From contig CAYSZS010000002.1 of NCBI GenBank assembly GCA_964435575.1, positions 762 through 64,761 on the forward strand: 64,000 nucleotides of DNA, given 5' to 3'. Made by a program: the position numbers and the translations under genes. Source of the stretch: an uncultured Gammaproteobacteria bacterium (lineage in GTDB: Bacteria > Patescibacteriota > Microgenomatia > UBA8517). Below, one piece after another: positions 957 through 57,236 of this stretch (its first letter is position 1; the number at the start of each line of letters is the position of its first letter). Under the pieces are notes generated by a model, which searched no databases, had not been told where the DNA came from, and saw nothing but the letters and a program-made list of their open reading frames with translations.

Positions 957-994
957 TTGCTCTGTTTACAGATTCAATTTTAGCAAATTTAAGG

Positions 995-2254: not shown

Positions 2255-2322
2255 ATTTAAATATTCTACATGTATTGTTCCAGCTACTAAAGATAGCTTT
2301 ATTTTGATATAATGAGCGACGC

Positions 2323-2407: not shown

Positions 2408-2411
2408 CAAT

Positions 2412-2493: not shown

Positions 2494-2532
2494 CACATGA
2501 CAAAGATGATATAAGTTGATACAGTATAGATT

Positions 2533-2877: not shown

Positions 2878-3063
2878 GTCGTAAAAACGGGATATTAGAA
2901 TCAACACTTGTTCAGCTAGAAGTCTAACCACTACGGTTGGTTTCAGAAAAAGGATATAGAAATTAATAATCAAACTGATTATTAAAATTAGGATAAGCAA
3001 AGATAAGAGCCTGGAAATTCCTGAGGATTGGTTCAATCTTAGGAAACTTCCTCGCACAGGAAA

Positions 3064-3137
3064 GGTCGCTTGGCTCAGTTGGTTAGAGCGTCTCGTTTAC
3101 ATCGAGAAGGTCGGGGGTTCGAATCCCTCAGCGACCA
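3064..3137 (+). tRNA. tRNA-Val(TAC)
   Basis: GGTCGCT..GCTCAGTTGGTTAGAGC..TCTCG-TTTACAT-CGAGA..GGGGGTTCGAATCCCTC-AGCGACC-A. Confidence 0.9.
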
Positions 3138-3254
3138 CTCGTCGAAGCTCATCTTAAGCGCTACGTTTTCAATTAAATGAAAACTACGCTTTTTTCAGAT
3201 GGCTTCTCCTCTCAAAATCTCTTTGAGATTTTGTATAATACAACAACAATATTA

Positions 3255-3360
3255 CGAAGTAATTTTGAAAGGAGAAATGGCGGAGTGTTAAGGGGTAAGC
3301 GAAAACGGATTACTATAAACGAAGTCCATTTCGACGGACCGAGGTAGCCAGGATGGTTGG
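3255..3360 (+). repeat. Degenerate copy (~65-70% identity) of the ~85-nt upstream leader plus the first ~12-20 nt of tRNA-Leu(TAA); the intact copy is at 9941-10045
   Basis: Shared strings AATTTTGA(A/G)AGGAGAAAT, GTAAGCG, ATTTCGACG(G/A)(A/G)CCGAGGT(A/G)GC. Copy 1 lacks a T-arm, so it is not a tRNA. Confidence 0.5.
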
Positions 3361-3409
3361 TCCAAAGCTTATATTAAGTTAAGATAGAATTTAATTACCC
3401 CCTACAAGA

Positions 3410-3919
3410 TTACTTAGCTTTAAATCTAGCAGAAGCCCATAAAAATGGAATAGTATGAGCTAAGTTAAAAAAAAGATTTTCTTGTTTCATCTGAAAGGTC
3501 AAAACTCCCAAGCCGATCGTGGTCAAGGCAAACACATGTAGCTCTGATATTTTCTTACCACTTATTGGGAAATCTATTGCTATAGTGAAAGAAAAAATTA
3601 CAGTATAAAGTAGAAATATTACCTCAAAGATAAGTATTATTAAATCAAAAATTTCAGTCGGTGAAGAATAAATACCCGATATGAGCAAAACAAATAAAGG
3701 GATTAAAAAATATAATGGTGGCAATAGGAACAGCTTTTTAATTCTTTCCAGTTTTGTTCCTTCTTTTAGCAAGTTTGCCGCTATTTCAAGTCCGATTACT
3801 GGGAAAAAGATATCTAACGGTCTCAATATGTTTTGTGCATCGGTAAAATTGAGTTTTTCGACAGGAATTAAGCTATAGAAGAGAAATCTTCCTATGAAGA
3901 ATAAACCTACATAATTCAT
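3410..3919 (-). CDS. Hypothetical polytopic membrane protein
   Basis: 169 aa with several hydrophobic segments; no recognisable motif. Confidence 0.45.
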   Translation of the reverse strand: MNYVGLFFIGRFLFYSLIPVEKLNFTDAQNILRPLDIFFPVIGLEIAANLLKEGTKLERIKKLFLLPPLYFLIPLFVLLISGIYSSPTEIFDLIILIFEVIFLLYTVIFSFTIAIDFPISGKKISELHVFALTTIGLGVLTFQMKQENLFFNLAHTIPFLWASARFKAK

Positions 3920-4000
3920 TTCTTAACATTACCACTACTCTGGTAAGTTTGCTATAATATGCCCTAAGATAAGATTTCCTTTTTGGGGATTAATTTCCTT

Positions 4001-4022
4001 GCCGAGATAGCCAAGGTGGTTG
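4001..4022 (+). repeat. tRNA-Phe 5' fragment, copy 1 (acceptor plus D-arm only)
   Basis: GCCGAGATAGCCAAGGTGGT matches the first ~20 nt of tRNA-Phe at 4767. Confidence 0.6.
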
Positions 4023-4062
4023 TCTCACAAATATTGTTGAGGTTGAACGGAGGTGATAATTA

Positions 4063-4260
4063 ATGGAAAGAGTACCAGGTGATAAAGGTCATAGAACAAC
4101 AGAGGGTTCTCGAGACGATATTGTGCAAAAAGTTTTAGATATTGCACGAGGTATGCCAGGAGACCCATTAGTGAGTAGTGAATTTGATGAAAACGATAAG
4201 CCTTTAGCTGTAATAGAATTTGAACAACAATCTGAAAAAGAAGCAACTACTAGTGAATAA
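4063..4260 (+). CDS. Hypothetical small acidic protein
   Basis: 65 aa. Strong SD (GGAGGTG) 8 nt upstream of ATG. Bracketed by the tRNA-Phe fragments. Confidence 0.4.
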   Translation: MERVPGDKGHRTTEGSRDDIVQKVLDIARGMPGDPLVSSEFDENDKPLAVIEFEQQSEKEATTSE

Positions 4261-4270
4261 GTATTTTTAA

Positions 4271-4310
4271 GCTGAGATAGCCAAGGTGGTCACGGCGGGC
4301 GCCTGAAGAA
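4271..4310 (+). repeat. tRNA-Phe 5' half fragment, copy 2 (through the anticodon loop)
   Basis: GCTGAGATAGCCAAGGTGGTCACGGCGGGCGCCTGAAGAA versus intact GCTGCGGTAGCCAAGGTGGTCACGGCGGGTCTCTGAAGAA. Confidence 0.65.
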
Positions 4311-4347
4311 CAATTACAATTTATCAGGCAACATGTAAACTTAACGT

Positions 4348-4776
4348 GTGAAGATATGCTCTAAATGTAAAAAGAAAAAAGTTTTATTTCAGTTTTACAA
4401 GAGAAAAACAGGTCTGAGAGCTGGAAAGTATTATGAGAAGTGTAAATCCTGCATGAAAGTCAGGGGTAGAAAGTATTATACAGAGAATAGAGATAGGCAG
4501 TTGCCTTTAGCAAATATTAGACGACGGAGGTACTATAGAGAGAAACGCGATTTCATAATAAATGCCAAGAACAGGCCATGCGCAGACTGCGGAAATAAAC
4601 TTCCAAGTTATGTGATGGATTTTGATCATCGTGATGGGGGTGATAAGATCGTTGATATAGCTCGTGCTGTTACGGCGAATTGGTCTCTAAATAAAATTAA
4701 AGCAGAAATTGAAAAATGTGATATTGTTTGTGCTAATTGTCATAGAATGAGAACTTACGAGTATATGCTGCGGTAG
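4348..4776 (+). CDS. HNH endonuclease with N-terminal Cys-rich zinc finger; homing-endonuclease-like
   Basis: CSKCKKKK...CKSC zinc finger. HNH motif DFDHRDGGDK...N...CANCHRMRT. GTG start; the 3' end overlaps the tRNA-Phe 5' end by 10 nt. Confidence 0.7.
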   Translation: MKICSKCKKKKVLFQFYKRKTGLRAGKYYEKCKSCMKVRGRKYYTENRDRQLPLANIRRRRYYREKRDFIINAKNRPCADCGNKLPSYVMDFDHRDGGDKIVDIARAVTANWSLNKIKAEIEKCDIVCANCHRMRTYEYMLR

Positions 4777-4839
4777 CCAAGGTGGTCACGGCGGGTCTCT
4801 GAAGAAGATCAGATTCTGGTTCGATTCCAGACCGCAGCA
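4767..4839 (+). tRNA. tRNA-Phe(GAA) with an unusual 11-nt D-loop
   Basis: Acceptor GCTGCGG/CCGCAGC, anticodon stem GGTCT/AGATC with loop CTGAAGA, T-arm TCTGGTTCGATTCCAGA. Confidence 0.8.
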
Positions 4840-4859
4840 CACTTGAAAGGCAGGTTTCT

Positions 4860-4931
4860 GCGGGAGTAGTACAGTGGTAGTACGCTTCCTTGCCAAGGAA
4901 GAGGTCGCGGGTTCAAATCCCGTCTCCCGCT
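4860..4931 (+). tRNA. tRNA-Gly(GCC)
   Basis: GCGGGAG..GTACAGTGGTAGTAC..CTTCC-TTGCCAA-GGAAG..GCGGGTTCAAATCCCGT-CTCCCGC-T. Confidence 0.85.
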
Positions 4932-4936
4932 CAGAA

Positions 4937-5974
4937 TTAAGAAGGAATCGGAAGCCTTTCTTTGCCCTTTGCATCACGAACGGTATTGATAAGAAGCCTT
5001 CGGAGAATTTCCTGAAAAGAAATGCCGTATAAATCCAGAATATAAGCCAAGGCGCAATCCGTTTCCTTCGGACCGAATGCGGGGTTGGTGTTGGAATCGA
5101 TAAAAAAATATCTGCCCGACGAGTCCATCCTGATGTCAAACTTCCCGTAGTCCATCATTTTGGTTATATCGAATGCCTTTCTGACATAAGCCCTTAAAAG
5201 AGGTTCGTCGTATTTTTGATAATGTATGTTTGTCAGTTTTTTACTTAACCACTGATCCTCAAATGTCATAAATATATATTTTCTGTCCGCTCCCTCAAAC
5301 ACTTTCTCGGCCAAATAAACTTTTTTATTTAATCCCTCCAAAAGTATAGCCGTAAACTCTCTGCCAACTATAAATTCTTCAACCAAAACGGGTTGTTTAT
5401 AAGTTTGAATCAAAAACTTTATTCTTTCTCTCAGATGTCTTTCGTTTTCGGATATAGCGTCTTGAGTTATTTCCACCGCGCCGTGAATTTCATTCAGCTT
5501 TGAAATTAAAGGATAACGAAGCGTAGGGTCAAGAAAATCGGACGAAGAATTAAAAAGCTGATAATTAGGCACGGGAACTCCATTTTGTTGAAGCAGTTTT
5601 TTTATGACAAATTTATTGGTGTCCAGGGACATTCCCAAAATATCCGCACCAGTGTAAGGAATTTCGAGAAGTTCCAAAACTCCCGGGATGGATGAGGACA
5701 AATATTCATAGCCCTTGACGGAATCGACAAGATTTATTACCGCGTTAGGCTTATCTTTTTTTAGTTTTTGGGGAAGACCGGAATTTCCGGGATATAAAAT
5801 TGGTTTAATCTTCAGTTTTTCTAAATATTTAGATATAACTCTCGCGTCTTTATCGGCGCCTTTTTCGGTAATGAACTGCATCTCTGTCGGGAAATACTCC
5901 CTTTTGACGTCACTATAGATAATGCCTACTTTTTCGGGTATTTCGTAGCCATTTTTTCCATTCGCTATTTGCAT
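4937..5974 (-). CDS. ATP-grasp enzyme of the D-alanine--D-alanine ligase family
   Basis: C-terminal GKFDIRMDSSGRYFFIDSNTNPAFGP and EEFIVGREFTAILLEG resemble Ddl ATP-grasp motifs. Confidence 0.6.
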   Translation of the reverse strand: MQIANGKNGYEIPEKVGIIYSDVKREYFPTEMQFITEKGADKDARVISKYLEKLKIKPILYPGNSGLPQKLKKDKPNAVINLVDSVKGYEYLSSSIPGVLELLEIPYTGADILGMSLDTNKFVIKKLLQQNGVPVPNYQLFNSSSDFLDPTLRYPLISKLNEIHGAVEITQDAISENERHLRERIKFLIQTYKQPVLVEEFIVGREFTAILLEGLNKKVYLAEKVFEGADRKYIFMTFEDQWLSKKLTNIHYQKYDEPLLRAYVRKAFDITKMMDYGKFDIRMDSSGRYFFIDSNTNPAFGPKETDCALAYILDLYGISFQEILRRLLINTVRDAKGKERLPIPS

Positions 5975-6068
5975 ATTAATACGCTTAAAAATATCGATTA
6001 TTTAGATGTACTTGTCAACTACGAAATGAAAAGTTAATAAATTTTTGATAAAATACAGAGATATTATT

Positions 6069-6143
6069 GCCCCTGTAGCTCAATGGATAGAGCGGCTCCC
6101 TTCTAAGGAGTAGATGAGAGTTCGATTCCCTCCAGGGGCACCA
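6069..6143 (+). tRNA. tRNA-Arg(TCT), CCA encoded
   Basis: GCCCCTG..GCTCAATGGATAGAGC..GCTCC-CTTCTAA-GGAGT..TTCGATTCC..CAGGGGC-A-CCA. Confidence 0.85.
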
Positions 6144-6153
6144 TTTGTGCAAG

Positions 6154-7299
6154 CTAAATAAACCTAACTTGCATGCCTTCGGCTAGCTTAGTCGAAAGTG
6201 AAACCTCTTGACCTGGAAATTTTGAACCCGCCCCCCAAATTTTTGCCTTTATTTTTTCTTTAACAAAATCTTCCCCTAATTTCTCCCCAACGTCGTACAA
6301 TGTAGAACCCACTTTCATTATAATCGGGTTATCAAAATCAGGGTCTTCGTCCGGTCGTACCAGATAGCCCCTCAAGAAATTAAGTGATAGCCACATTTTT
6401 TCTTTCAACTCGGTAAGACCGGTTCCTTTTTCAGCGCTGATAAATAGTGGAGTAACGGTTGCAGCCTCAAATACACCCGGCGGCCTGCCTGTCGGAAAGG
6501 CAGGGTGGATTAGCTTGGCACCCGTTACTTTGTTGTTTAAGTCAGCTTTATTAATAATAGAAATTGAGGGTACGTATACGCGGTTTAGAGAAAAAGCGTC
6601 AATTAGCCTTTCTATTGTCAGCTTTTCATTGATGGTTATTTCGGCGTTTTTAATTCCCAACTCTTGTGCAATAGATTTAATAGTTTCTTTAGTAAGGTCT
6701 TGCTTGATGTTTGAATGGAGAGTTAATCCTCCTGAAACTTTCTTGTCTATAATTACATTTGGTCGCACAATGTTGAGGCGTATGCCGTTTTCCTCCAAAG
6801 TTTTTTTAATTCTTTCAGTTGCTTCAGGGCGGTCAACATCGGTCATAAGTATTATTAAGTCTGCCCCCCGAGCTACCGATAAAACTTCCCTACCTCTCCC
6901 CCTCCCTTCTTCAGCCCCCTCGATAAGCCCAGGAACATCAAGTATCTGAATTCGAGCGTTTTTGTAAATCATCATTCCGGGAATAACGTTTACCGTCGTA
7001 AAAGCGTAGGGAGCAACCTTGCTTTGGGCGTTTGTCAATTTGTTAATAAGAGTTGATTTTCCCGCTGAGGGGGGGCCGATTAAGATTACGGCTGCATCAC
7101 CTTGTTTTTTAACGGCGTATCCGCCTCCGCCACCCTTTTTTACAGACTCAACCCGAAGACCGTCTTTTAGCTTTGCAAGCTTTGCGCGAAGCCTGCCAAT
7201 ATGGTGCTCTGTGCCTTTGTGATAGGGAGTATCACGAATCTCTTTCTCGATCCGCTTGATATTCATATGAGTATTTTCGGAATTGGTTAAGTGCACCAT
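6154..7299 (-). CDS. DRG/Rbg-family GTPase (Obg superfamily) with C-terminal TGS domain; start may instead be the internal Met at 7266
   Basis: G1 GPPSAGKST, FTT, DVPGLIEGAEEGRGRGR (classic DRG), NKAD. C-terminal TGS-like tail. Confidence 0.75.
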   Translation of the reverse strand: MVHLTNSENTHMNIKRIEKEIRDTPYHKGTEHHIGRLRAKLAKLKDGLRVESVKKGGGGGYAVKKQGDAAVILIGPPSAGKSTLINKLTNAQSKVAPYAFTTVNVIPGMMIYKNARIQILDVPGLIEGAEEGRGRGREVLSVARGADLIILMTDVDRPEATERIKKTLEENGIRLNIVRPNVIIDKKVSGGLTLHSNIKQDLTKETIKSIAQELGIKNAEITINEKLTIERLIDAFSLNRVYVPSISIINKADLNNKVTGAKLIHPAFPTGRPPGVFEAATVTPLFISAEKGTGLTELKEKMWLSLNFLRGYLVRPDEDPDFDNPIIMKVGSTLYDVGEKLGEDFVKEKIKAKIWGAGSKFPGQEVSLSTKLAEGMQVRFI

Positions 7300-7362
7300 G
7301 TTTGGAATTATATCAAAGAAGACTTCCTCCCACTCAAAGTTAGAAGCTAAATAAGCTTTTGG

Positions 7363-7746
7363 TTATTTTCTCTTATCCATGTACTGCCAAGCTTTGTATT
7401 GGACAAAATTAGCAATAACTGCAATTCCGGCAACGTACAGATAGCTTGCAATGCCGACACCGGTTATAAAGGCAAATCTGGCAATTAACCAAACAGTTGC
7501 AAAATTCATGACCAAATATGCCAGCATCATTGGCACGTTTTCTTTATACGGATACTCCAAGTCTTTTAAGAAAGCTTCGGTATGCCATAGCACTAAGTTC
7601 CAGATAAACCCGCTAAAGACGATTGCCTGATATGGCGCAAAGATGCTATTTCCGATGCTAACTGCGTTGGGTAAAAAAAGATTTGCCAAGTACAAAATTG
7701 CCGAGTTAATTAGCCAGAAACCTAAAAATTTCTGATAGCGTTTCAT
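7363..7746 (-). CDS. Hypothetical membrane protein
   Basis: Start at MKRYQKF, preceded by an AGGAGGGGGTGAG Shine-Dalgarno. 4 hydrophobic helices. Confidence 0.5.
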   Translation of the reverse strand: MKRYQKFLGFWLINSAILYLANLFLPNAVSIGNSIFAPYQAIVFSGFIWNLVLWHTEAFLKDLEYPYKENVPMMLAYLVMNFATVWLIARFAFITGVGIASYLYVAGIAVIANFVQYKAWQYMDKRK

Positions 7747-7942
7747 ATTCTCACCCCCTCCTATGGGATAGCTCACTTAGGAGTATCTAATGGGACCATG
7801 TTGGATAGCTTCGCCTACAACGCAAAGCGGTGCCAAGCTATGCTTATCCAACTGTGACCCTTACTTCTTTGCCAAAACTTATCTAAATTCAGTATAATAT
7901 AATTCAAGAGTTGAAAAAATAAGCAATACTGATGAGAAAATT

Positions 7943-8015
7943 GCCTCTGTAGCTCAACGGATAGAGCACCTGTCTTCGGAACAGGGAATGAGGGTTCGAT
8001 TCCCCCCAGAGGCAC
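7943..8015 (+). tRNA. tRNA-Arg(TCG)
   Basis: GCCTCTG..GCTCAACGGATAGAGC..CCTGT-CTTCGGA-ACAGG..GGGTTCGATTCCCC..CAGAGGC-A. Confidence 0.85.
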
Positions 8016-8180
8016 TGAAGGCAATTTTCGAATTTACTTAGATCCAGACAATAATACTGCAGAGGAAGGTAAGCCGGCACCCAAACATACTCCTAGTCCC
8101 GATTTTTTATATAATTCAAGAAATTAATCTCTCTTTTAGTTATTGACATAAGTTACCTGTAATGTGTTATATAACATAAA

Positions 8181-9902
8181 GTGAAGTTTATTATTGTCTC
8201 CGGTGGTGTACTATCTGGTCTCGGTAAGGGAGTAACTACGGCTTCAATTGGCCTCCTTCTTAAATCCCGCGGAATAAAAGTTACTGCCATGAAGTGTGAT
8301 ATGTACCTGAATATTGATGCTGGTACTATGAACCCTATTGAGCACGGTGAAGTCTTTGTTACCCACGACGGAGTTGAAACGGATCAAGACTTGGGTCATT
8401 ATGAACGCTTTATCAATGAAATTTTAACCAGGGAAAATTATTTGACAAACGGTCAGGTTTACAGGATTGTTTTGGACAAGGAAAGAGCTCTCGAGTACGG
8501 AGGTAAGTGCGTAGAGCCTTATCATCAAATACCTCCTGAAATAATTTTAAGATGGATTGCAGCAGGGCGAGTCCATAACGCCGACGTAGTTTTAATCGAA
8601 TTGGGCGGAACCGTTGGAGAGTATGAAGGACTTTTGTTTTTTGAAGCTGTTCGAAGAATTAAATTGAAAAGCCCCATGGATGTCATTTTGATTCATGTAG
8701 GCTATCTTCCTGTTCCTCCTTCAATCGGAGAGCTAAAATCAAAACCAATTCAACAGTCGGTTCAGATTTTAAATAGTTTAGGTTTAACGCCTGATATTAT
8801 AGTTGGGCGTGCAGAAAAAGAAATCGACCAAAAAAGGAAAGAAAAAATAGCTCTAGCATCCGGTGTTTTAGTAGAAAATATTATTTCAAACCCTGACGTT
8901 AATAGTATTTATGAAATCCCGATTGTTTTAAGAAAACAAAAGTTAGATGAAATAATTATTAAACAATTGGGTTTGAAAGCAAAAAGAGAAGATCTTCGGG
9001 ATTGGGAAATAATGCTGGAAAAATCCAAGAAAATCCGAGACGTTGTAAAAATTGGAATTGTCGGCAAATATCAAAAAACAGGTGATTATACTCTCGAAGA
9101 CAGTTACGTTTGTGTTGTTGAGAGTCTAAAACATGCAGGATTACATTTTAATGTACAACCGCGGTTTTCTTGGATTGATTCGGAAAGTTTGGAAGACTTA
9201 ACAGATTCTGAGATTAAGGATCGTTTGGGGGGAATGGATGCGATAGTGGTTCCTCAAGGGTGGGGAAGGCGTGGAGTCGAGGGGAAAATTAAAGCTGCAA
9301 AATATGCTCGGGAAAATAAACTTCCCTACCTTGGTCTTTGTTTTGGCATGCAAATGGCATCAATTGAGTTTGGCAGAAATGCCGTCGGACTTAAAAAAGC
9401 AAATTCTTCAGAGGTGGATCCAAGGACTCCTCATCCTGTTATTCATATAATGCCTAATCAACGAGATTATTTGAATAAAAAACAATATGGCGGAACGATT
9501 CGCCTTGGCGCTTGGCCCTGCGTAATTAGAAAAGGCACACTACTTGAAAAAGCTTATAAAAAATTTGGCGGAGGAAAATTCAGACCTTGGTACCAACCCA
9601 ATCCCCTGTTTAAAAACAAATCACCAATCACTAACCCGCCTGCCGGACGGGCAGGTCACGAATCACTAATCTTCGAGCGTCACCGCCACAGATACGAGTT
9701 TAATAATAAATACAAAAGGCTGTATGAAAAGAAAGGATTTGTTTTTTCAGGGACTTCACCGGACGGAAAGCTAGTTGAAGCAATTGAGTTGAAAGAACAT
9801 CCCTTTTTTGTCGGGACTCAATTCCACCCGGAATATTTGAGCCGTCCCCTATCCCCACATCCAATATTCTTATCCTTTATTGAAGCTATTGTGAATAAAT
9901 AG
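8181..9902 (+). CDS. pyrG: CTP synthase
   Basis: N-terminal synthetase domain (VSGGVLSGLGKG) and C-terminal GATase (GLCFGMQ); 573 aa; GTG start. Confidence 0.95.
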   Translation: MKFIIVSGGVLSGLGKGVTTASIGLLLKSRGIKVTAMKCDMYLNIDAGTMNPIEHGEVFVTHDGVETDQDLGHYERFINEILTRENYLTNGQVYRIVLDKERALEYGGKCVEPYHQIPPEIILRWIAAGRVHNADVVLIELGGTVGEYEGLLFFEAVRRIKLKSPMDVILIHVGYLPVPPSIGELKSKPIQQSVQILNSLGLTPDIIVGRAEKEIDQKRKEKIALASGVLVENIISNPDVNSIYEIPIVLRKQKLDEIIIKQLGLKAKREDLRDWEIMLEKSKKIRDVVKIGIVGKYQKTGDYTLEDSYVCVVESLKHAGLHFNVQPRFSWIDSESLEDLTDSEIKDRLGGMDAIVVPQGWGRRGVEGKIKAAKYARENKLPYLGLCFGMQMASIEFGRNAVGLKKANSSEVDPRTPHPVIHIMPNQRDYLNKKQYGGTIRLGAWPCVIRKGTLLEKAYKKFGGGKFRPWYQPNPLFKNKSPITNPPAGRAGHESLIFERHRHRYEFNNKYKRLYEKKGFVFSGTSPDGKLVEAIELKEHPFFVGTQFHPEYLSRPLSPHPIFLSFIEAIVNK

Positions 9903-10024
9903 TAAAATATACATGTATTCGTAATTATTTAAACAAAATTCCGTAGGAATTTTGAGAGGAGAAATTACGAAACGATAAGCAATAAGCGTAAGCGTATTGT
10001 GATAAGTGAAGTATATTTCGACGA

Positions 10025-10112
10025 GCCGAGGTGGCGGAATTGGTAGACGCGAGGGCCTTAAGAGCCCTTGTCCCGATGGGACGTGGGGGTTCGAGTCCCC
10101 CTTTCGGCACCA
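10025..10112 (+). tRNA. tRNA-Leu(TAA), type II, CCA encoded
   Basis: GCCGAGG..GCGGAATTGGTAGACGC..AGGGC-CTTAAGA-GCCCT, long variable arm, T-arm GGGGGTTCGAGTCCCCC, CCA. Confidence 0.9.
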
Positions 10113-10195
10113 CGGAGTGTGGCTCAGTTGGCAGAGCGCGCGCTTTGGGAGCGCGAGGTCCCCGGTTCGAATCCGGGCACTCCGACTCAATATTA
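10113..10195 (+). tRNA. tRNA-Pro(TGG), immediately abutting tRNA-Leu
   Basis: CGGAGTG..GCTCAGTTGGCAGAGC..CGCGC-TTTGGGA-GCGCG..CCCGGTTCGAATCCGGG-CACTCCG-A. Confidence 0.85.
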
Positions 10196-10249
10196 TTTGT
10201 TAAAAAGTTGTAAGCTTAAGCGGGCCTGCCCGCCGAAGCTTCAGCGTAG

Positions 10250-10323
10250 GCGGGATTAGTTGAGCGGTTCAACATTTGCTTTCCAAGCAAAGAAGAGGGG
10301 TTCGACTCCCCTATCCCGCTCCA
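10250..10323 (+). tRNA. tRNA-Gly(TCC), CCA encoded
   Basis: GCGGGAT..GTTGAGCGGTTCAAC..TTTGC-TTTCCAA-GCAAA..AGGGGTTCGACTCCCCT-ATCCCGC-T-CCA. Confidence 0.85.
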
Positions 10324-10381
10324 CTAGCATTAAGGGACAAGCTCTGCTTATAACGCCCCCAGCTGTGCGAAGAGAAGGAAG

Positions 10382-11329
10382 TTACTTTTCTTTTCCGACT
10401 ATAATGATTACGTCGTAAGTGGAGTCTTCTTCAAGAGTAGTATCGGATTTAACGACGTCATAAGTATCTGAAAGAGCACTCCTTATTTCATCAAAGACTT
10501 TTTCGGACAAATCTTTTTTTAGACTGATAGAAGTAGCGGTATAGTCGTATGACTGGGCATTTCCGGTTGTTATTTTATCTTCCATAAAACCACTTTCTGT
10601 GAGCAAATCTTTTGCCTTCCCCGCTACCCCTGCTGTTCCGGAGCCGTTAAGAACGCTGAGAGTTAGAGTGCTTATATCAACCTCTGTCTCCGGCTCCTGA
10701 GTCGGGCTGGGCGTTGAAGTTTCCTCCTTTTCAGGAGTTTCACTAATAGATTCCTCGCTAACCGATTGTTTATAATAGAAAATTCCTCCTACCAAAGCTC
10801 CCAAGATAAGAAGAATGATTAGAGTAAAAACTATAAACTTTGTATTTGGTCCGCCTTTTTTCTCTACCTCTTTTGTCGTATCCGGTCTGACTTCTTTGAG
10901 CCACTCTTTTATTTCGTCGGAGGATACATCCTCTTTCCCCTTTCCTTTTTCCTCGGTCATTTCTTGAGTAGGTGTTTCAGATTCAGACAGATCTTCCTTT
11001 TCCTTTTGAGGCTCCGGAGTTAGAACGCTTTCACTGGACTTGGCGGCACCCTCTGCTCCTGAAGCGATATCAGACGATTTTTGAGAATCAAGCTGACTAA
11101 ATGACGTTATTTTCGGAGTATCCTGAGAAGTTGATGCTCGAAGCTTGGTTTCTTCCTCATCTCTTGGTTTTGTTTCAGCTATACTTTCCGTAGATTCTTT
11201 CGCTGGAAGTTGAGTTTCAACTTCTTCCGGTTCTTCACTTATCTCCTCTACTTTTATTTTTGGTTTTGTCGCTTTGGTTTTATCAGCCATGCTTTTACCA
11301 TTGTGAAACATTTGGGGTTGCTTTGTCAA
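10382..11329 (-). CDS. LytR_C (LytR/CpsA/Psr C-terminal) domain protein with acidic disordered N-terminus and one TM segment
   Basis: C-terminal VLNGSGTAGVAGKAKDLL...GNA...TT pattern typical of LytR_C. E/S/T-rich low-complexity N-terminus. TM segment FIVFTLIILLILGALVGGIFYY. Confidence 0.55.
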   Translation of the reverse strand: MTKQPQMFHNGKSMADKTKATKPKIKVEEISEEPEEVETQLPAKESTESIAETKPRDEEETKLRASTSQDTPKITSFSQLDSQKSSDIASGAEGAAKSSESVLTPEPQKEKEDLSESETPTQEMTEEKGKGKEDVSSDEIKEWLKEVRPDTTKEVEKKGGPNTKFIVFTLIILLILGALVGGIFYYKQSVSEESISETPEKEETSTPSPTQEPETEVDISTLTLSVLNGSGTAGVAGKAKDLLTESGFMEDKITTGNAQSYDYTATSISLKKDLSEKVFDEIRSALSDTYDVVKSDTTLEEDSTYDVIIIVGKEK

Positions 11330-11370
11330 TACACCTGGGATTTGATAAAATACAAGGTGTAATTATTCAA

Positions 11371-11444
11371 GGTGGTGTGTGCCGAACGGTTTAGGCGCTG
11401 CTTTGTGGAGGCAGTTTTAGCGGGTTCGACTCCCGTACACCACC
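11371..11444 (+). tRNA. tRNA-His(GTG) with genomically encoded G-1
   Basis: Extra 5' G pairing with discriminator C (8-bp acceptor G-GTGGTGT/ACACCAC-C). Anticodon stem CTGCT/GGCAG with loop TTGTGGA. T-arm GCGGGTTCGACTCCCGT. Confidence 0.85.
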
Positions 11445-11521
11445 CAAGTTTTCTAGCCTCAAGCAAATATATTGAATTATTCCTACTTAAAATCGCGCTC
11501 GAACCAAAATATAATACTTTT

Positions 11522-17955: not shown

Positions 17956-18357
17956 TCATTTAACCAACCAATAAATGAAGGAATTAATAAGAGAGAGGAT
18001 AAAAGAGAAACCTACAAATGCTAAAAATTCGTGGAAATTGAGGGCGGGAATGTCTATCCACTTACTTGAGACTCCTGCGAAAATAAAGGCAATAATTTTA
18101 AAATCTTTGATAATTAAAGTCACTATATATAAAACGACAGCGGACGAAACCCATCTGAAAAGACCGAAGGTTACAAGATTAAGGGGAAGTAGTAGGAGGT
18201 TGATAATGGGTTTTGCGAGAAGAAACGTTCCTGTTAGTGCGGCCCCTGCGACTAGTAAAGTAAATATCCCTTTTTCAAATATCATTCCCGAGGCAACTTT
18301 CGATATGGCCCAAAGAGAGAAAGTGTCGATAACATAGTGGCGGAGTATGCGTTTCAT
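17956..18357 (-). CDS. Hypothetical 4-TM membrane protein (DUF360/holin-4-like topology)
   Basis: 133 aa; four hydrophobic helices. Confidence 0.4.
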   Translation of the reverse strand: MKRILRHYVIDTFSLWAISKVASGMIFEKGIFTLLVAGAALTGTFLLAKPIINLLLLPLNLVTFGLFRWVSSAVVLYIVTLIIKDFKIIAFIFAGVSSKWIDIPALNFHEFLAFVGFSFILSLINSFIYWLVK

Positions 18358-18404
18358 ATTATTTTAAGTATATCCATAAGTATATCAATGGGTTAAGACT
18401 GAAA

Positions 18405-19197
18405 ACAAGACATAATCAACATCCGATGTTGTTTAAATTGGAATATCGGGAAACATGTTATAATGTTTTTATGCCGATTAGAAAAACCCCAATAGTTACA
18501 GATCAAATTTATCATGTGTTTAATCGAGGAATTAATAAGCAACCCATATTTTTTACGAAAAGAAATTATCTGAGAGCTTTGGACACTATTAAATACTATC
18601 GTTTCTACAAACCACCACTTCCGTATTCAAAGTATATTAAGCTTACAGATAACATTAAAAACTTGTTAAAAGAAAGTATCAGAAGTGTAGAAAAAGGTGT
18701 TCATATTATCTCTTATACTTTGATGCCCAACCACTATCATTTTTTGCTTAAACAGTTAAAAGACGGTGGCATTAATAATTTTATTAGAAATTTTCAGATA
18801 AGTTATACAAAATATGTTAATAAAAGATTCGACCGTACCGGAGCCCTAATTCAAAGTCAGTTTAAGGCAGTCCTAATAGAAGACGATGAACAATTAATGC
18901 ACATTAGCAGGTATATCCACCTTAACCCACATACATCGTTTGTGGTCAAAGATCTGAAAGAACTTAAAAGTTATCCTTGGTCTTCGCTAGCAGAATATTT
19001 AGGAGTTGCAAAAAATGGTTTTTGCTCAAAAGATATAGTCCTCTCACTTTTTAAAGAGAAAGATATTTACTGGAAATTTATAGCGAATCAAGCTGACTAC
19101 CAGAAGAGATTAGATAAAATTAAACATTTAACTCTTGACTAACTCACCCCGATGTTAAAACGTAATCAAAATCGGATTTTGTCTGAATGGGAATATC
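18405..19197 (+). mobile_element. IS200/IS605-family-like element (Y1/RAYT-type transposase) with hairpin-bearing ends
   Basis: LE: CATAATCAACATCCGATGTTGTTTAAATTGGAATATCGGG. RE: CCGATGTTAAAACGTAATCAAAATCGGATTTTGTCTGAATGGGAATATCGGG. Both end motifs recur in a 230-bp miniature copy at 49464-49693. Confidence 0.6.
18471..19142 (+). CDS. tnpA: Y1 (HUH) transposase, IS200-like/REP-associated tyrosine transposase
   Basis: YHVFNRG motif; HUH motif MPNHYHFLL; catalytic Tyr region ISRYIHLNP; 224 aa. Confidence 0.75.
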   Translation: MPIRKTPIVTDQIYHVFNRGINKQPIFFTKRNYLRALDTIKYYRFYKPPLPYSKYIKLTDNIKNLLKESIRSVEKGVHIISYTLMPNHYHFLLKQLKDGGINNFIRNFQISYTKYVNKRFDRTGALIQSQFKAVLIEDDEQLMHISRYIHLNPHTSFVVKDLKELKSYPWSSLAEYLGVAKNGFCSKDIVLSLFKEKDIYWKFIANQADYQKRLDKIKHLTLD

Positions 19198-19201
19198 GGG
19201 T

Positions 19202-20656
19202 TCAAACGAGCAACAATTCTCTTTGCACTAACTTGTGATGGTAACGGCGGGCGAAGCGGTGGGCTTCGTCGCGGATTCTTTGCAAAAGATTTTTAGCGGG
19301 AATATTAGGAAGCCTTAGTTGGATAAAAGAAAGTCGATTGTCTTTGAATTGAGGGATTACCAGAGTTTCAAATCTTTTGGCAAGTCCGAGAACAGGAATT
19401 TCGTATTTTTTCAGTTCTTCCCAAAAAACTCTTACCTGAGTTTTTCCGCCGTCAACCAAAATTAAATCCGGCATTCCCCACCCTCCTGAAGACGCATCAA
19501 AATATTTACTCCTTCTTTTGATGGTTTCTCTTAATGACGATAAATCATTCCCTTCTGTCTGACTAATTCTGAAATGTCTGTAAAGGGATTTTTCCGGTTC
19601 ACCCATTACGAAAGTAGTCATTGAAGCCGTCGGACTTGAACCGGCTAAGTGGGCTATATCGTAACATTCAATACGCCGAATTTTTCTGGGAAGGCTAATA
19701 TATTGGTATAAAATTGTTTCAAGAGAATTTATCTCATTACGCCTGATATCTTCGATGAAATTGGGATTTTTCAAAAATTCGTTGATCGGTGTAATTGGTT
19801 GAGTAATATAATCAAGTTTCTGTATCTGATCGCGAACAACTTTTGCATTTTCGAAATCCTCTTTTTTAGAATAAATCTCCATTTCTTTTTTAAGTGATTT
19901 CCTAATATAATGAAGGCCACCCGAAAGAATTTTTCTAATCGCTCCTATATTTTTTTTGTAGATAGCCATATGGCCTTTTTTAAGTTTTTCGTCTTTAATA
20001 TTTTCGATGTAGTTTGGACAGGGATAGCATAACCCAATTTGACTATAAAGACATTCTTTATTACCGATTTTGTGCTCGGCATAGGGGAAAAGAGGGCGTA
20101 ACATTTTTAAAACGCTTTTGACGTTTCTTGATGACGGATATGGACCGAAGAAAAAGGTCCCGTCTTTCAAGTCAGCTTTTCTAGCAGTCAGTACTTGGGG
20201 GTATTTTTCTTTGGTTATTTTTATATATAGAGGGTGTTTGTCGTCTTTGAGCTGACTATTATAAATCGGTTGTAGTTTTCTGACTAGATTTGCTTCAAGT
20301 AGAAGCGCTTCTAGTTCTGAAGAAACCTTAATAATTGAGCAGTATTTTGCCTCTCGAATCATTCTTGCGGTTTTCGAAGACAAATTTGTAAGGAAATACG
20401 AAGCGACTCGATTTTTTAAATTCAGAGCTTTGCCGATGTATATTGGTCTTTCCTCTTTATTCCAAAATATATATACACCCGGATTTTGAGGTATTACTTT
20501 TATTCGAACTTCGCGAAGACCTTGCCTGCTAGGGCGGGGATGAAGCGAAGCAGCGAGCAAACTTGTCCGAAGGAATACCCTGCCTGAAGCGAAGCGCATG
20601 GCAGGGTAGTTTATGCTATTTTTATTAACCTTTATTTTTTTTAAGGAATCTAACAT
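19202..20656 (-). CDS. uvrC: Excinuclease ABC subunit C. Alternative start at 20599 (MRFASG...). Apparently lacks the C-terminal RNase H-like/HhH region
   Basis: GIY-YIG (PGVYIFW...IYIGKA). UvrBC-interaction region. LQRIRDEAHRFARRYHHKL near the C-terminus. The stop codon directly abuts the IS element right end. Confidence 0.85.
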   Translation of the reverse strand: MLDSLKKIKVNKNSINYPAMRFASGRVFLRTSLLAASLHPRPSRQGLREVRIKVIPQNPGVYIFWNKEERPIYIGKALNLKNRVASYFLTNLSSKTARMIREAKYCSIIKVSSELEALLLEANLVRKLQPIYNSQLKDDKHPLYIKITKEKYPQVLTARKADLKDGTFFFGPYPSSRNVKSVLKMLRPLFPYAEHKIGNKECLYSQIGLCYPCPNYIENIKDEKLKKGHMAIYKKNIGAIRKILSGGLHYIRKSLKKEMEIYSKKEDFENAKVVRDQIQKLDYITQPITPINEFLKNPNFIEDIRRNEINSLETILYQYISLPRKIRRIECYDIAHLAGSSPTASMTTFVMGEPEKSLYRHFRISQTEGNDLSSLRETIKRRSKYFDASSGGWGMPDLILVDGGKTQVRVFWEELKKYEIPVLGLAKRFETLVIPQFKDNRLSFIQLRLPNIPAKNLLQRIRDEAHRFARRYHHKLVQRELLLV

Positions 20657-49315: not shown

Positions 49316-49463
49316 ATATTTTTCTAGCCGCTGCCCGGCTGGAGAAAAATCCGTATCAGGTACAGAAGATATAGACCGAAGCGTGGGAGATTTTATATGG
49401 TATATCAAGAAGGCGAGCCGTCTATTACTTTGAGAGGAAATTTACTCGAACAAGCCGCAATAG

Positions 49464-49693
49464 CATAATCAACATCCGATGTTGTTTAGCTTGTAACATC
49501 GGGTATTGATGAAAAGATTATATATTTATGAAAATAAGTAAGTTTATACAAAATACTTTAATCGGGTTTCTTTGTATAGTCTTCTTCATTTTTTCAGCAT
49601 TAGCAACATATCTTCTATTAGATTTATTTAAGTTTAATTTACCGATATTGCAACGTAATCAATATCCGATTTTGAATACATTTGAATATCGGG
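49464..49693 (+). mobile_element. Miniature non-autonomous (MITE-like) derivative of the IS200-like element at 18405-19197: both terminal motifs present, no transposase
   Basis: LE CATAATCAACATCCGATGTTGTTTAGCTTGTAACATCGGG. RE CCGATATTGCAACGTAATCAATATCCGATTTTGAATACATTTGAATATCGGG. Matches the IS ends at ~80% identity. Confidence 0.55.
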
Positions 49694-51234
49694 ATATTAA
49701 GCTCCCTAAAGCCTTTATCGTCCAGTCGGGTTCAATGGAACCTGCTATTAAAACCGGAAGCATTGTCATAACTAAAAAGGAAGAAATCTATAATCAGGGA
49801 GAAATAATTTCCTATACAAAGGGTTCGAAAAATATCATAACTCACAGAATTCAAGTCAAAAACTATCCTGACGGTATCAATTCTGATCCAGTCTATTTAA
49901 CTGCCGGAGACGCCAACGAGGATTTTGATTCAGGAAGTATAACCAGTGAACAGATAGTAGGTAAGGTCGTTTTGACACTCCCCTATTTGGGCTACGTTGC
50001 CGACTTTGCCAAACAGCCCTACGGCTTTTTGCTTTTGGTCATAGTTCCGGCGACAATTGTTATTTACGAAGAGTTAAAGGGTTTATTAAAGGAAATCTTT
50101 AAAACATTATCTATCATGAAAAGAAAGCTATTTCGTCGTAAGGGTCGTACCCTTAAGTACGACTTAAAGGGTACGACCCTCAAGGCTAAAAACAACGGTC
50201 TGCCTAAAGCTAGTGCAATAGTTCCGATTTTCGGTGCAGCACTTGTTTTTACCGGTCTCGCCTCGTCCTTCTTCTCCGACATAGAAATTTCAATAGGAAA
50301 TTTATTTCAGGCAGGTGATTGGAGTCCCCCCATTGCACAAACATTAGTAATAAATGAAGTATTGTACAAAACAAATTGCACTGTACCTCAAAATAAACAA
50401 TGGATTGAGATATGGAACGGTTTTGATTTCACGGTTAATCTCCAGGATTGGAGTTTAAGAGATGGAGAAGGAAACACAATTCAAATAATTAATTCTGTAA
50501 CTCCCCTCGCCCCCGGAAAATTCGCATTATTGTCCAAATCAAGCGCAACATGGAACGACCAATGTTACGGACCGCTCCTTAGTGATGTTGTTCAAGTCCA
50601 ACTAGGTGGGACAATAAATATTGCAACAGAATCTGGAGCATTTAAATTATTAGATAGCAATCTTGATATCGTAGATGAGGTTTTCTATGGTCCTGACCCT
50701 GCATCAGCAAGTGCCGGTCTTAACTTCTCGTTTGAAAGGGAAGTTTTAGGCCAAAAAACCGGCGGAGTATTTAATGCAATTGATTTTTCTGAAAGAAAAC
50801 CATCAATAGCAGGTTTTGCAATACCTCAAAATCAGGATGTAGTTATTAATGAATTCATCGTCCACGATGGCGGTACCGGACTGGGTAATGATTGGGTTGA
50901 ACTTTATAACAAAACGGGCAGCAGTGTTGACATAAGTGGATGGACTCTCCGTGATACAACCGGTATTTTTCACACTGTTCCAGCTTCCACAACTTTATTA
51001 AATGGCGACTGGTACACTGTTTACAATAGTTCAAACAGACTCGGAAATAGTGGCGACAAAATTTATTTATTTGATTCTGGTAGTAATTTAAAAGATGGAA
51101 TCTCATATTTTCAGTTCTTGCCATCGGTTGGTAGTTCTGTTGGAAGAAATACAGATGGTGGTAACGCTTGGTCAGTTTTTACAGTTCCAACAGATGATAA
51201 TACTAATATAAATCCGACATCACCTTGGCCATAA
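49528..51234 (+). CDS. In-frame fusion: SipW-type signal peptidase I (res 1-196) fused to a protein with SipW-cognate signal peptide and two lamin-tail domains (LTD)
   Basis: SGSMEPAIKTGSIV, ITHRIQ, GDAN, TM segment. Internal MKRKLFRRKGR...IVPIFGAALVFTGLASSFFSDIEISIGNLFQAG (ATG at 50116, same frame, no intervening stop). LTD1 VINEVLY...WIEIWN...WSLRD. LTD2 VINEFIV...WVELYN...WTLRD. Confidence 0.65.
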   Translation: MKISKFIQNTLIGFLCIVFFIFSALATYLLLDLFKFNLPILQRNQYPILNTFEYRDIKLPKAFIVQSGSMEPAIKTGSIVITKKEEIYNQGEIISYTKGSKNIITHRIQVKNYPDGINSDPVYLTAGDANEDFDSGSITSEQIVGKVVLTLPYLGYVADFAKQPYGFLLLVIVPATIVIYEELKGLLKEIFKTLSIMKRKLFRRKGRTLKYDLKGTTLKAKNNGLPKASAIVPIFGAALVFTGLASSFFSDIEISIGNLFQAGDWSPPIAQTLVINEVLYKTNCTVPQNKQWIEIWNGFDFTVNLQDWSLRDGEGNTIQIINSVTPLAPGKFALLSKSSATWNDQCYGPLLSDVVQVQLGGTINIATESGAFKLLDSNLDIVDEVFYGPDPASASAGLNFSFEREVLGQKTGGVFNAIDFSERKPSIAGFAIPQNQDVVINEFIVHDGGTGLGNDWVELYNKTGSSVDISGWTLRDTTGIFHTVPASTTLLNGDWYTVYNSSNRLGNSGDKIYLFDSGSNLKDGISYFQFLPSVGSSVGRNTDGGNAWSVFTVPTDDNTNINPTSPWP

Positions 51235-51279: not shown

Positions 51280-52446
51280 ATGATAAAGATTAGAAAAATC
51301 AGAGCCATGGGAATAAGAAGGATTAGTGCAATTCTTCTTCTGCCGTTTGTTTTAGTGGGAACATTTCTTGTGTATAAAAATTCCCAAATTACAAGATATG
51401 CTTATGGGGAGGGCGACCCTTTGATTTTAACCTATGATCCTGAGGGTCCTCTTCCTGATCCACCCATGTTTGTTGTCACCAATATGCTCCCGGGTGACTC
51501 TAAAACAAAGGACTTTAATGTCAAAAATGCATCAACTGAGGATGAGTCGGTTACTATGGATTTTATCAAAACTGACGAGGAAAAAGATTTTGCTAACATA
51601 TTGGATGTAGAAGTAACAGAACTTCCCTCAACCGTTATCTTTCAAGGCAAACTTCAGGCTCTTTTTGACGCTCCCCTGTTTAACCTTGGCAACTTCCCTG
51701 CCGGAAGCGACAAAAGTTTCAGAGTCAAAGTAAAATTCCCGGAGAATGCAGGAAATGAGTACCAAAATGCCATGGTCATGTTTGATATAAAATGGCAAAC
51801 AGAACAACCCGAAATAGAAATCCCTGAAGACTGTTCATTTTTGGAATCAGGAATTACCAGGGTTGTTGAAGGAACAGAGGGCAATGACTTCATTATTGGT
51901 AACAAGGAATCTGAGTTATTCATTCTAAAAGGCGGTAACGATATAGTTTTTGGAGGTAAAGGCAACGATATAATCCTCGGAGGCGAGGGTAACGACCCTA
52001 GGCTTGACGGGAGTGACGGAAATGATTGCATTATAGGAGGCCCAGGTAATGACCATCTTGACGGGAGTGATAATAATGATGTTCTTTTCGGAAATGAGGG
52101 AAATGATAACCTTGACGGTGGCGGTAATGATGATCTGATAAAGGCAGGTACAGGAAACGACAATGTAGACGGCGGAGCAGGAAATGACGTAATTTACGGC
52201 GAGGAAGGAAACGATAATATTGAAGGCGGAAGCGGGAATGACAACATTTGGGGAGGAATTGGTAACGATACTATAAAAGGAGAAAGCGGAAATGATAATT
52301 TATATGGAGAAGAAGGGAATGATAACCTACAGGGAGGAAGCGGTATGGACTTTTTGGATGGCGGAGCCGATACGGACACTCTTCATGGAGGTTCAAGTAC
52401 GGATACCTGTGTCAACGGAGAATCAAATACTTCCTGCGAGCTCTAG
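51280..52446 (+). CDS. Secreted protein with TasA-like beta-sandwich region followed by RTX-type calcium-binding nonapeptide repeats
   Basis: Signal-anchor. FVVTNMLPGDSKTKDFNVKNAS (TasA-like core). About 14 GGxGNDxLx repeats (GGNDIVFGGKGNDIILGGEGND...). Confidence 0.65.
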   Translation: MIKIRKIRAMGIRRISAILLLPFVLVGTFLVYKNSQITRYAYGEGDPLILTYDPEGPLPDPPMFVVTNMLPGDSKTKDFNVKNASTEDESVTMDFIKTDEEKDFANILDVEVTELPSTVIFQGKLQALFDAPLFNLGNFPAGSDKSFRVKVKFPENAGNEYQNAMVMFDIKWQTEQPEIEIPEDCSFLESGITRVVEGTEGNDFIIGNKESELFILKGGNDIVFGGKGNDIILGGEGNDPRLDGSDGNDCIIGGPGNDHLDGSDNNDVLFGNEGNDNLDGGGNDDLIKAGTGNDNVDGGAGNDVIYGEEGNDNIEGGSGNDNIWGGIGNDTIKGESGNDNLYGEEGNDNLQGGSGMDFLDGGADTDTLHGGSSTDTCVNGESNTSCEL

Positions 52447-56145: not shown

Positions 56146-57216
56146 TTAGCCAATGGTTTTTTCTTCTAAACGCTCCATTTCATAAAGGGCTACGATAAAT
56201 AGAGACTCGCTCCAGCCAAGAGGCGTATTTTCGTTATAGTCAGCGGAATTTGAAAAATAGAGTTCAGGCATGCCCTCGGGGGTATCAATTGTAATGAGAT
56301 TTTTAATCAACTCCTCTACTTTTTCTTTATTTCCCATTTTTTCGTAGATTATGGCAAGCCATGATAATCCGAAAGTCCACTCGGCCTCTTCAGAAATCCC
56401 GTCGGGATTTCTGTTGTAGTAATGGTCTCCCTTGTACCTGACCACTCCCCTTTCTTTAGCAAGGTGATACTCGACGTTCTCAAGTATTTTACCCCTTTGC
56501 TCGTCTGTAACTACATCGTAAGGCCATATAAGTGAAAGTAGTGACAAATCCGTAAATTTATGCTCGCTTTCTCTGGGAAGAAGTAATTTTAGTGAATCTT
56601 CTCCTTTTCGGATTAGCCATAAAGGGACTTCAATTTGTGCCATTTTGGATACTGATTTCAGTCCAGCTACACACGCTCCGACGGAGCTTGCATGTAGCTC
56701 CTCTTCCTCTTCCCAAATTCCGGAATCGGGATCGCTCCAATATTCAATAGATTCCAGATATTTTACCAGCTTATTTATGATTCGGGTATGTTCGGGCGTT
56801 TTTAAGATTGATCTTTTCTGGTTAATTTCCAGTTCTCCCAGCCGAAAAAGAATGCAGCCTATAGCGTCATTTTGTTTATTACCCCACTCTTCCCAAAATT
56901 CGTCAAAAGTTTCAGGATGGAATCGCGCGTGTATTCGTTTGTGGGCTTCTTTTGGTTTTTCTTTAATGGCCCAGTCTATTTTATCTTCGTGTCTGAGAAA
57001 AACGTTCAAAATTGCTCTATACGTTTTTTCGACTGTGTTCCAGTCGCCTATAACTTCAAAAGCAATTGTTTCGTAAAAATTGTCTCTCAACCAACTTTTG
57101 TCGTAGCCAGTTGACAAGCCTTTTTTTGAAGCCAAAAATAAGCCGGACTTAGTTTTTAGACTTTTCAGGATTGTTAAATGTTTTTTTATCAGCTCGTCGT
57201 ATGTAAGTCTGGCCAT
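56146..57216 (-). CDS. Glycoside hydrolase family 15-like (glucoamylase-type alpha/alpha-6 barrel) protein
   Basis: YDKSWLRD and SGIWEEEEELHASSVGACVAGL (general acid region) motifs. Confidence 0.55.
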   Translation of the reverse strand: MARLTYDELIKKHLTILKSLKTKSGLFLASKKGLSTGYDKSWLRDNFYETIAFEVIGDWNTVEKTYRAILNVFLRHEDKIDWAIKEKPKEAHKRIHARFHPETFDEFWEEWGNKQNDAIGCILFRLGELEINQKRSILKTPEHTRIINKLVKYLESIEYWSDPDSGIWEEEEELHASSVGACVAGLKSVSKMAQIEVPLWLIRKGEDSLKLLLPRESEHKFTDLSLLSLIWPYDVVTDEQRGKILENVEYHLAKERGVVRYKGDHYYNRNPDGISEEAEWTFGLSWLAIIYEKMGNKEKVEELIKNLITIDTPEGMPELYFSNSADYNENTPLGWSESLFIVALYEMERLEEKTIG

Positions 57217-57236
57217 TTTTAGGTTAAAATATTATT

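Follow-up and report, generated by a model that had tools for sequence, protein, structure and literature searches.

Repetitive extragenic palindromes (REP) and the REP-associated tyrosine transposases (RAYT) with which they form REPtrons are recognised by several features, i.e., a Y1/HUH protein nearer to TnpA-REP than to the TnpA of insertion sequences (IS); cognate palindromes on both flanks of its gene; one copy of this gene in each genome, paralogues having separate palindrome types; a high-copy, mostly extragenic dispersal of these palindromes; and, typically, a GT[AG]G tetranucleotide at the 5' foot of the hairpin (PMC3337134, PMC6006769), which some REP subclasses also do without (PMC6006769). 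Palindromic repeats of another kind, the Rickettsia palindromic elements (RPEs), lie in frame in protein-coding genes and are translated in tolerant regions; they occur solely in Rickettsia, span about 100-150 bp, and no transposase is known to be cognate to them (PMC10969869). Here, we describe a palindromic unit found in a 64-kb stretch of DNA (the whole of which we call the window) from a Woesebacteria-type bacterium of the Candidate Phyla Radiation (CPR). Two copies of this unit flank a gene for a Y1/HUH tyrosine transposase-like protein, and two others stand at the beginning of sipW-LTD, which encodes a signal peptidase fused to lamin-tail domains (LTD). We propose that the four units are quite probably low-copy REP-like palindromes cognate to the single-copy Y1/HUH gene, which would constitute a REPtron with its flanks (18413-19200), and that the two sipW copies arrived independently of each other.

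A palindromic unit on both sides of an apparently single-copy Y1/HUH gene

The unit, TAATCAA-N-ATC-S-GAT-N-TTG-N13-ATCGGG, is present in four gapless copies on the + strand (Table 1), and the alignment of the four window segments that carry them (18400-18460, 19150-19215, 49455-49515, and 49645-49710) contains 27 invariant columns. A preliminary description of this DNA had reported that a ~230-bp segment at sipW shares its end motifs with an element located 31 kb away. The alignment bears this out; the similarity to the flanks of the Y1 gene is specific, extends beyond short low-complexity strings, and is far beyond chance. Indeed, a scan of the window with the 19-nt core pattern, tolerating up to three mismatches, gave nine matches where 0.62 were expected, a count that none of 100 shuffles reached. 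These nine matches are the four sites, their reverse-strand echoes (which arise because the core is palindromic), and one partial match. Moreover, 13 family members served to build a covariance model, which, run on the window with filters off, retrieved exactly the four sites, with E-values from 5e-16 to 2e-10, and no other match with E < 1 in the 64 kb.

Scanning metagenomes for the unit pattern yielded nine further loci holding the palindrome. In these loci, a longer imperfect palindrome of ~54 nt is seen (about 54-73 nt when the right sipW copy of the window is counted), of which the unit forms the 3' two-thirds; its consensus is CCCGATATT-gcaacgt-AATCAAYATC-S-GATRTTGATT-agcttgc-AATATCGGG. 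Its architecture comprises three half-sites, rcH - N7 - H|rcH - N7-10 - H, where H is approximately CAAYATCGG. In the 13-copy alignment, 74.8% of the cells pair as the long hairpin requires, versus 30-40% in slid controls, and covariation was not above that of shuffles, a test made uninformative because the copies are too alike. The 5' outer arm is missing from both 'left' copies (18413... and 49466...) and from the copy at L003. Searched as an exact pattern in GTDB genomes, the full unit gave 0 matches; this pattern is too strict, and related families do occur there, e.g., at L026.

The protein encoded between the first two units matches Pfam PF01797 with 37.4 bits, over the cut-off of 23. 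It possesses an HUH motif (H88/H90) and a catalytic Tyr148 within RYIHLNP, all three residues being invariant in 44 sequences, and carries a conserved ~70-aa C-terminal extension. Since a PDB search with the sequence gave marginal ISDra2 matches only, structure prediction was needed. The AlphaFold (AF2) model, with a mean predicted local distance difference test (pLDDT) of 90.7, has as its best PDB fold match 4er8_A (E 1.3e-7, TMt 0.71), i.e., the E. coli TnpA-REP/RAYT bound to a REP hairpin; IS608 and ISDra2 TnpA come after it, with E-values of 5e-5 to 1e-4. The exact protein is found on 23 metagenome contigs, from many groundwater assemblies, and its gene has the same neighbours in 23/23 (SBP_bac_5, a 120-aa open reading frame (ORF), uvrC, and a transglutaminase-core gene). 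The gene thus does not appear to be multiplied. With one fixed context and a predicted fold closest to 4er8, what the preliminary description had called an IS200-like element is better read as a single-copy REPtron than as an IS.

In the upstream unit of this gene, the inner palindrome CAACATC-C-GATGTTG is separated by 10 nt from the 3' half-site AATATCGGG; the unit lacks the 5' outer arm and its 3' end lies 20 nt ahead of the ATG. The Y1 reading frame is open across 18333-18470, through the upstream palindrome and in the same frame of the palindrome as the one used in sipW, and would give RHNQHPMLFKLEYRE. Translation of this stretch is unlikely given the conserved MPIRK start at 18471.

The Y1 family is large and uniform: 3010 proteins, of about 222-227 aa, match at E <= 1e-10, annotated merely as 'transposase' or 'hypothetical', and the top 120 listed are all 216-230 aa long. 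We retrieved 80 GTDB loci with Y1 homologues, nearly all from Patescibacteria (Woese-, Davies-, Levy-, Gottesman-, and Roizmanbacteria, and Saccharibacteria), and analysed the flanks of 39 full-length homologues. Many of these GTDB records (L026, L032, L033, L039, and others) are titled 'uncultured Gammaproteobacteria', probably an artefact of third-party annotation (TPA) assembly labelling. By eye, most of the 39 have two-sided, lineage-specific palindromes with the architecture seen in the window, at about -60 to -20 from the ATG and +5 to +90 downstream. When upstream and downstream flanks were aligned directly, the score was >= 39 in 16/39 homologues and <= 20 in 7/39. Two-sided cognate palindromes are present at L007, L008, and most of L026-L064; one flank palindrome, TCCACCTGGGGGGTGGATTnCTATTGACACCTAGGG, is common to L030, L032, and L044; and genomes with several Y1 genes show a separate palindrome for each (e.g., L028/L029, L034/L041). 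In many other lineages the 3' arm yields, by eye, a TTGACA, ~17 nt, and a TAxxxT box directly before the ATG. The alternative also envisaged in the preliminary description, in which a conserved structured sequence gave rise to the IS ends, comes closer to the truth, in so far as a palindrome family is present; however, across Patescibacteria it is the flanks of the transposase gene, and not sipW, that define this family.

The two copies at sipW and the copies elsewhere

The SipW-LTD protein comprises an archaeal-type signal peptidase I (residues 62-182) and two lamin-tail domains, and the exact protein is present in GCA_000992365.1. As noticed previously, no ORF similar to a transposase is present in the interval that separates the two sipW copies (49503-49656), and the ATG, the transmembrane (TM) helix, and codons 1-55 are located between or inside the units. 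The intergenic copy has hairpin arms at 49468-49483/49495-49510, and a gap of 24 nt separates the end of its conserved unit from the ATG. The intragenic copy is a full palindrome with arms of 36 nt each (49631-49666 and 49668-49703), 78% complementary, and is indeed translated, as PILQRNQYPILNTFEYRD, in the linker that joins the TM anchor to the catalytic SGSMEP motif. Most of the SipW homologues listed have a short linker, and the closest homologues a long, variable one. By direct reading, two frames of the palindrome are closed by stops, TAA (in ACGTAATCAA) and TGA (in GATNTTGA), and sipW uses the third, which is open. The intragenic copy would be tolerated because the linker is variable and only the stop-free frame is read. 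A 'donated promoter' for sipW was considered and is not claimed, as consensus scans found no canonical promoter or terminator at either window copy.

Table 1. Features of the window discussed in the text.
Feature	Position	Strand	Evidence
Four copies of the palindromic unit	18413-18450, 19163-19200, 49466-49503, 49656-49693	+	Gapless alignment
Upstream palindromic unit of the Y1 gene	18413..18450	+	Alignment; covariance-model match 18394-18455, E 4.6e-12
Y1/HUH tyrosine transposase-like gene, TnpA-REP/RAYT type, 223 aa	18471..19142	+	Pfam, NCBIfam, AlphaFold model
Downstream full-length palindromic unit, CCCGATGTT...CAAAATC-G-GATTTTG...AATATCGGG	19148..19200	+	Covariance-model match 19144-19205, E 5.9e-13
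Intergenic sipW copy ('mini left'), 5'-truncated like 18413-18450	49466..49510	+	Covariance model E 1.7e-10; DNA fold z = -4.2
sipW-LTD fusion gene	49528..51234	+	TIGR02228 83 bits; PF00932 1e-28
sipW start codon and segment coding for the N-terminal TM anchor	49528..49630	+	Orthologous sipW without this repeat family
Intragenic full palindrome ('mini right'), core 49641-49693	49631..49703	+	Covariance model E 5e-16; DNA fold z = -4.2

The family is also met outside the Y1 flanks and sipW. At L001, a copy lies in frame in a GT4 glycosyltransferase gene, with the TAA lost; at L002/L009, an fmt-like gene, recognised by its N-terminal sequence alone, takes its stop codon from a copy; and the copy at L003 is intergenic.

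Proposed explanation and points that weigh against it

By analogy with TnpA-REP and the TnpA of IS200/IS605 (IS608), the Y1 protein would bind the hairpin formed by the palindrome in single-stranded DNA and would cut and rejoin the palindrome, now and then copying it elsewhere. An older copy would have landed inside sipW and would have been kept there since the linker is variable and the frame free of stops. A younger, 5'-truncated copy, of the type found upstream of the transposase gene, would have landed in the intergenic region before the ATG.

Several observations weigh against this explanation. Firstly, the copy number is far under that of classical REP/REPIN families: only two non-flanking copies exist in the 64 kb, one of them intragenic, and about two more in the flanks of other loci, which total roughly 200 kb, so that no high-copy, mostly extragenic dispersal is seen. 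Secondly, no GT[AG]G foot is present in the palindrome, whose consensus ...AACGTAATCAAYATC... shows GTAA where REPs have GT[AG]G, and no shared foot was found across the other lineages either. Thirdly, the Y1 protein reaches 50 bits with NCBIfam REP_Tyr_transpos, under the cut-off of 80. Moreover, no synteny of the Y1 locus was found between lineages, and its inheritance may thus not be strictly vertical; and neither transposition, nor excision, nor an empty-site polymorphism was seen among 24 contigs. Finally, two properties of the sipW orthologues, i.e., the presence of palindromes of other RAYT-flank families at the matching linker and the strong conservation of the intragenic copy between distant orthologues, are not predicted by a simple selfish-repeat model.

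Palindromes at the linker of other sipW genes

L005/L006 is an orthologous tasA-like / sipW-LTD / RTX locus. Its SipW is only 43% identical to that of the window, and the intragenic palindrome, 86% identical in nucleotides, occupies identical codons in the same frame (PILERNQ[HY]PILNSLQYRDI). Between the window and L006, nucleotide identity is 85% in the palindrome, 33-44% in the TM region, and 57-63% around the catalytic motif, and the eight differences found in the 19 codons of the palindrome are 2 synonymous and 6 non-synonymous. Judged from these alignments, such a pattern is one of DNA-level constraint or of recent origin, and not of protein-level selection.

Other orthologues carry other palindromes at this place. 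The linker of L023 contains AATCAACCCG-T-CGGGTTGATT-aggttt-GAACCCTTCGG; that of L025 contains TTCCACCTGGGGGGTGGAA-tatgcgt-ACACCTGGGG, a palindrome of the type that flanks the Y1 gene in L030, L032, and L044; and that of L107 contains a full palindrome, TCCCGATATG...GTTCCACTTC-C-GAAGTGGAAC...CATATCGGGA (DNA fold z = -7.7). The L025 and L107 palindromes have codon and frame in common, their inner changes being compensatory, while the frame of the 3' arm differs between the window and L107. Only the 3' arm is left in L106. Altogether, at least four sequence families are found at the sipW linker, and a significant inverted repeat precedes the catalytic Ser, within 120 nt, in 5-6/11 sampled orthologues, for a background of about 0.2 perfect palindromes with a stem >= 8 bp per kb. 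In L106, L108, L109, L114, and L115, the linker palindrome is either decayed or missing, which argues against an obligatory function. This recurrence may reflect a persistent landing site with turnover, a conversion by the current family of the genome, or a host function.

The last of these possibilities, that the linker palindrome is not selfish DNA but a host-functional nucleic-acid element co-evolving with the Y1 protein, appears to us rather unlikely. A domesticated Y1 protein could bind or cleave it, or it could form a hairpin, in mRNA or in DNA, by which the expression of sipW is adjusted in the tasA-like operon. The repeats before the catalytic Ser, the number of families at the linker (including the one that matches in type the Y1-gene flanks of other genomes), the features common to L025 and L107, and the peak of window-L006 identity at the palindrome, with its synonymous and non-synonymous differences, all speak for it. 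So do the strong conservation of the Y1 family in length and sequence and the near absence of the in-frame peptide outside SipW: among 5.8 billion proteins, a concatenated query gave four word-sharing candidates, none of them scoring. However, the palindrome is not required, being decayed or absent in five of the linkers, and the family also resides at unrelated sites (the GT4 gene, the end of the fmt-like gene, and an intergenic site). Furthermore, no physical linkage of the Y1 loci to sipW or tasA-like genes was found, and the window copies bear no canonical promoter or terminator signal.

It is also unlikely that the Y1 protein and the palindromes are a domesticated, co-evolving protein-DNA pair acting on a persistent sipW site. 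If so, the linker palindrome of each lineage would be recognised by its own Y1 protein, and would serve either as a regulated site of cleavage or binding through which the TasA-like surface-fibre operon is controlled, or as a permanent landing pad re-written over evolution. The interest of the system would be greater if the recurrence at sipW did reflect a dedicated interaction of this sort.

Origin of the sipW pair

The preferred explanation, independent arrivals of REP-like copies, makes the DNA between the two sipW copies a host sequence. The closest SipW homologues are devoid of any copy of the palindrome family and carry the corresponding TM segment, SATATYLLLDTFRF in P0001 (58% identity) and TTSFLLLDTLKL in P0002 (50% identity), for SALATYLLLDLFKF in the window. 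At L005/L006, no copy was found upstream of sipW, the intragenic one being alone. The intergenic copy of the window is 90% identical to the Y1-upstream unit, and the intragenic one is 85-87% identical to the L005/L006 copies and 80% to the Y1-downstream unit. Among the 24 contigs of this species bearing the upstream gene, neither a variant without the segment nor an excision or phase variant was found, an unrelated 82-bp indel being the only difference. As far as these comparisons go, the start codon and the TM-helix segment are ancestral host sipW sequence. They also indicate that the two copies are independent, the intragenic one older and the intergenic one younger, because the interior is of host origin, L006 has a single copy, the closest relatives of the two copies differ, and no deletion variant exists among these contigs.

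This leaves very little room for the earlier model, in which the ~230 bp are a miniature, non-autonomous element of IS200/IS605 type, i.e., a palindrome-associated transposable element (PATE) or miniature inverted-repeat transposable element (MITE), inserted whole and providing the promoter-proximal region, the start codon, and the membrane anchor of sipW. The sipW copies do match the Y1-flank units in order, orientation, and end types (left 5'-truncated, right full), and the distance from the left unit to the ATG is alike at both loci (20 and 24 nt). Nevertheless, the interior is orthologous to the sipW N-termini of genomes without units, so that the N-terminus is not supplied by an element. 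L006 possesses the right copy alone, and the closest relative of this copy is not the Y1-downstream unit. Neither the window nor the metagenome scan yielded a second 230-bp unit, and no empty site was found among the 24 contigs. Hence, 49460-49700 shows no element-specific interior, no second locus, and no empty site of the kind that a PATE or MITE would have.

Even less probable is a sipW on/off switch (phase variation), in which the direct copies would be substrates for a precise, Y1-mediated excision of the 190-bp segment. The geometry is suitable, since such an event would take out the ATG and the TM helix, and excision of this sort is established: IS200/IS605-type enzymes excise the single-stranded DNA between left-end and right-end hairpins and reseal the donor. 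But the arrangement is intact in 24/24 contigs with the upstream gene, the orthologue L006 lacks the left copy, and REPtron-type enzymes are not known to excise DNA in this way. Lastly, a chance similarity of AT-rich, low-complexity strings, with which the 10-mer GAATATCGGG would agree in not being significantly enriched by itself in the window (8 matches vs 4.0 expected), is ruled out by the covariance-model E-values (1e-10 to 1e-16, for the four sites of the window alone), by the shuffles, and by the palindrome at nine independent metagenome loci; the observation is real.

Other features of the window and of related loci

In the SipW-LTD protein, an internal segment at residues ~240-275, PIFGAALVFTGLASSFFSDIEISIGNLFQAGD, resembles the N-terminal SipW-type signal peptides (AFFSDTETSVGNTFVAGD) of the TasA-like proteins encoded upstream (46901... 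and 48113...), which suggests that the lamin-tail part could be released via self-processing. Between the tasA-like genes and sipW, the 82-bp segment 49330-49411, clear of the palindrome, is present in the window and most contigs and absent from GCA_000992365.1 (L021/L111); the contig L112 terminates within it. The RTX-repeat camelysin-like gene at 51280-52446 encodes 388 aa here and in most contigs, and 367 aa in GCA_000992365.1, suggesting a variation in repeat number.

Another palindrome family, CTTTAAAGGAGAAACCTTTAAAG, is found in L109 in three copies in 6 kb (724-758, 2306-2336, and 2965-2991); one copy is located just 5' of the sipW start and one in frame in the C-terminal linker of SipW, where it gives the peptide FKGETFK. 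In the window, a perfect palindrome with an 11-bp stem, CAGAAATCCCGTCGGGATTTCTG (56391-56413), lies within a 361-aa ORF on the minus strand (56149-57231) and may be another intragenic palindromic element or the product of chance. The window also contains 12 tRNA genes clustered in its first 11.5 kb (826-11446).

Comparison with known systems

The IS200/IS605 elements and PATEs resemble the system described here by a Y1/HUH enzyme of one superfamily (PF01797), by hairpin-forming subterminal sequences in the same strand on both sides of the gene, and by the lack of both terminal inverted repeats and target duplication. They differ from it in that the unit of gene plus flanks occupies here one place in the population and is not multicopy, the fold is nearer to RAYT than to IS608 or ISDra2 TnpA, and the sipW pair encloses no element-specific DNA. 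For annotation purposes, such units should not be taken as IS ends, and the N-terminus of sipW is genuine.

As with the RPEs, palindromes lie here in frame in genes (in sipW, in the GT4 gene, and, for the FKGETFK element, in L109), and cognate palindromes of a transposase-like gene can therefore be translated. However, our element is about 54 nt long, is tied to a Y1 gene, and has no sequence relationship with the RPEs. The host is a Woesebacteria-type CPR bacterium and a scan of the window at Rfam gathering thresholds returned tRNAs only, so that the resemblance is an analogy only.

The closest parallel is with the REP/RAYT systems (E. coli yafM/TnpA-REP, Pseudomonas RAYT-REPIN). In both cases, a Y1/HUH gene, here apparently in single copy, has its own short imperfect palindromes on both sides; the type of palindrome seems particular to each paralogue or lineage; palindrome copies exist elsewhere in the genome, the gene itself not appearing to be multiplied; and the fold of the Y1 model is closest to 4er8. 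On the other hand, tens to hundreds of copies are found there versus a very low copy number here; our palindrome is longer (about 54 nt), has three half-sites, and lacks the GT[AG]G foot; the 223-aa protein has a C-terminal extension of ~70 aa and stays under the NCBIfam RAYT cut-off; and copies lie within coding sequence. No link of RAYT or REPIN with Patescibacteria was found in the searchable literature. Our results would thus extend REP/RAYT-type systems to the CPR and give a context to a large Y1 family so far poorly annotated, and the different families recurring at one sipW linker offer a testable handle on how REPs disseminate and are maintained in place. In conclusion, the system probably belongs to the known REP/RAYT kind, and what is new is a REPtron-like organisation whose palindrome is low-copy, has three half-sites, and can be translated in frame.

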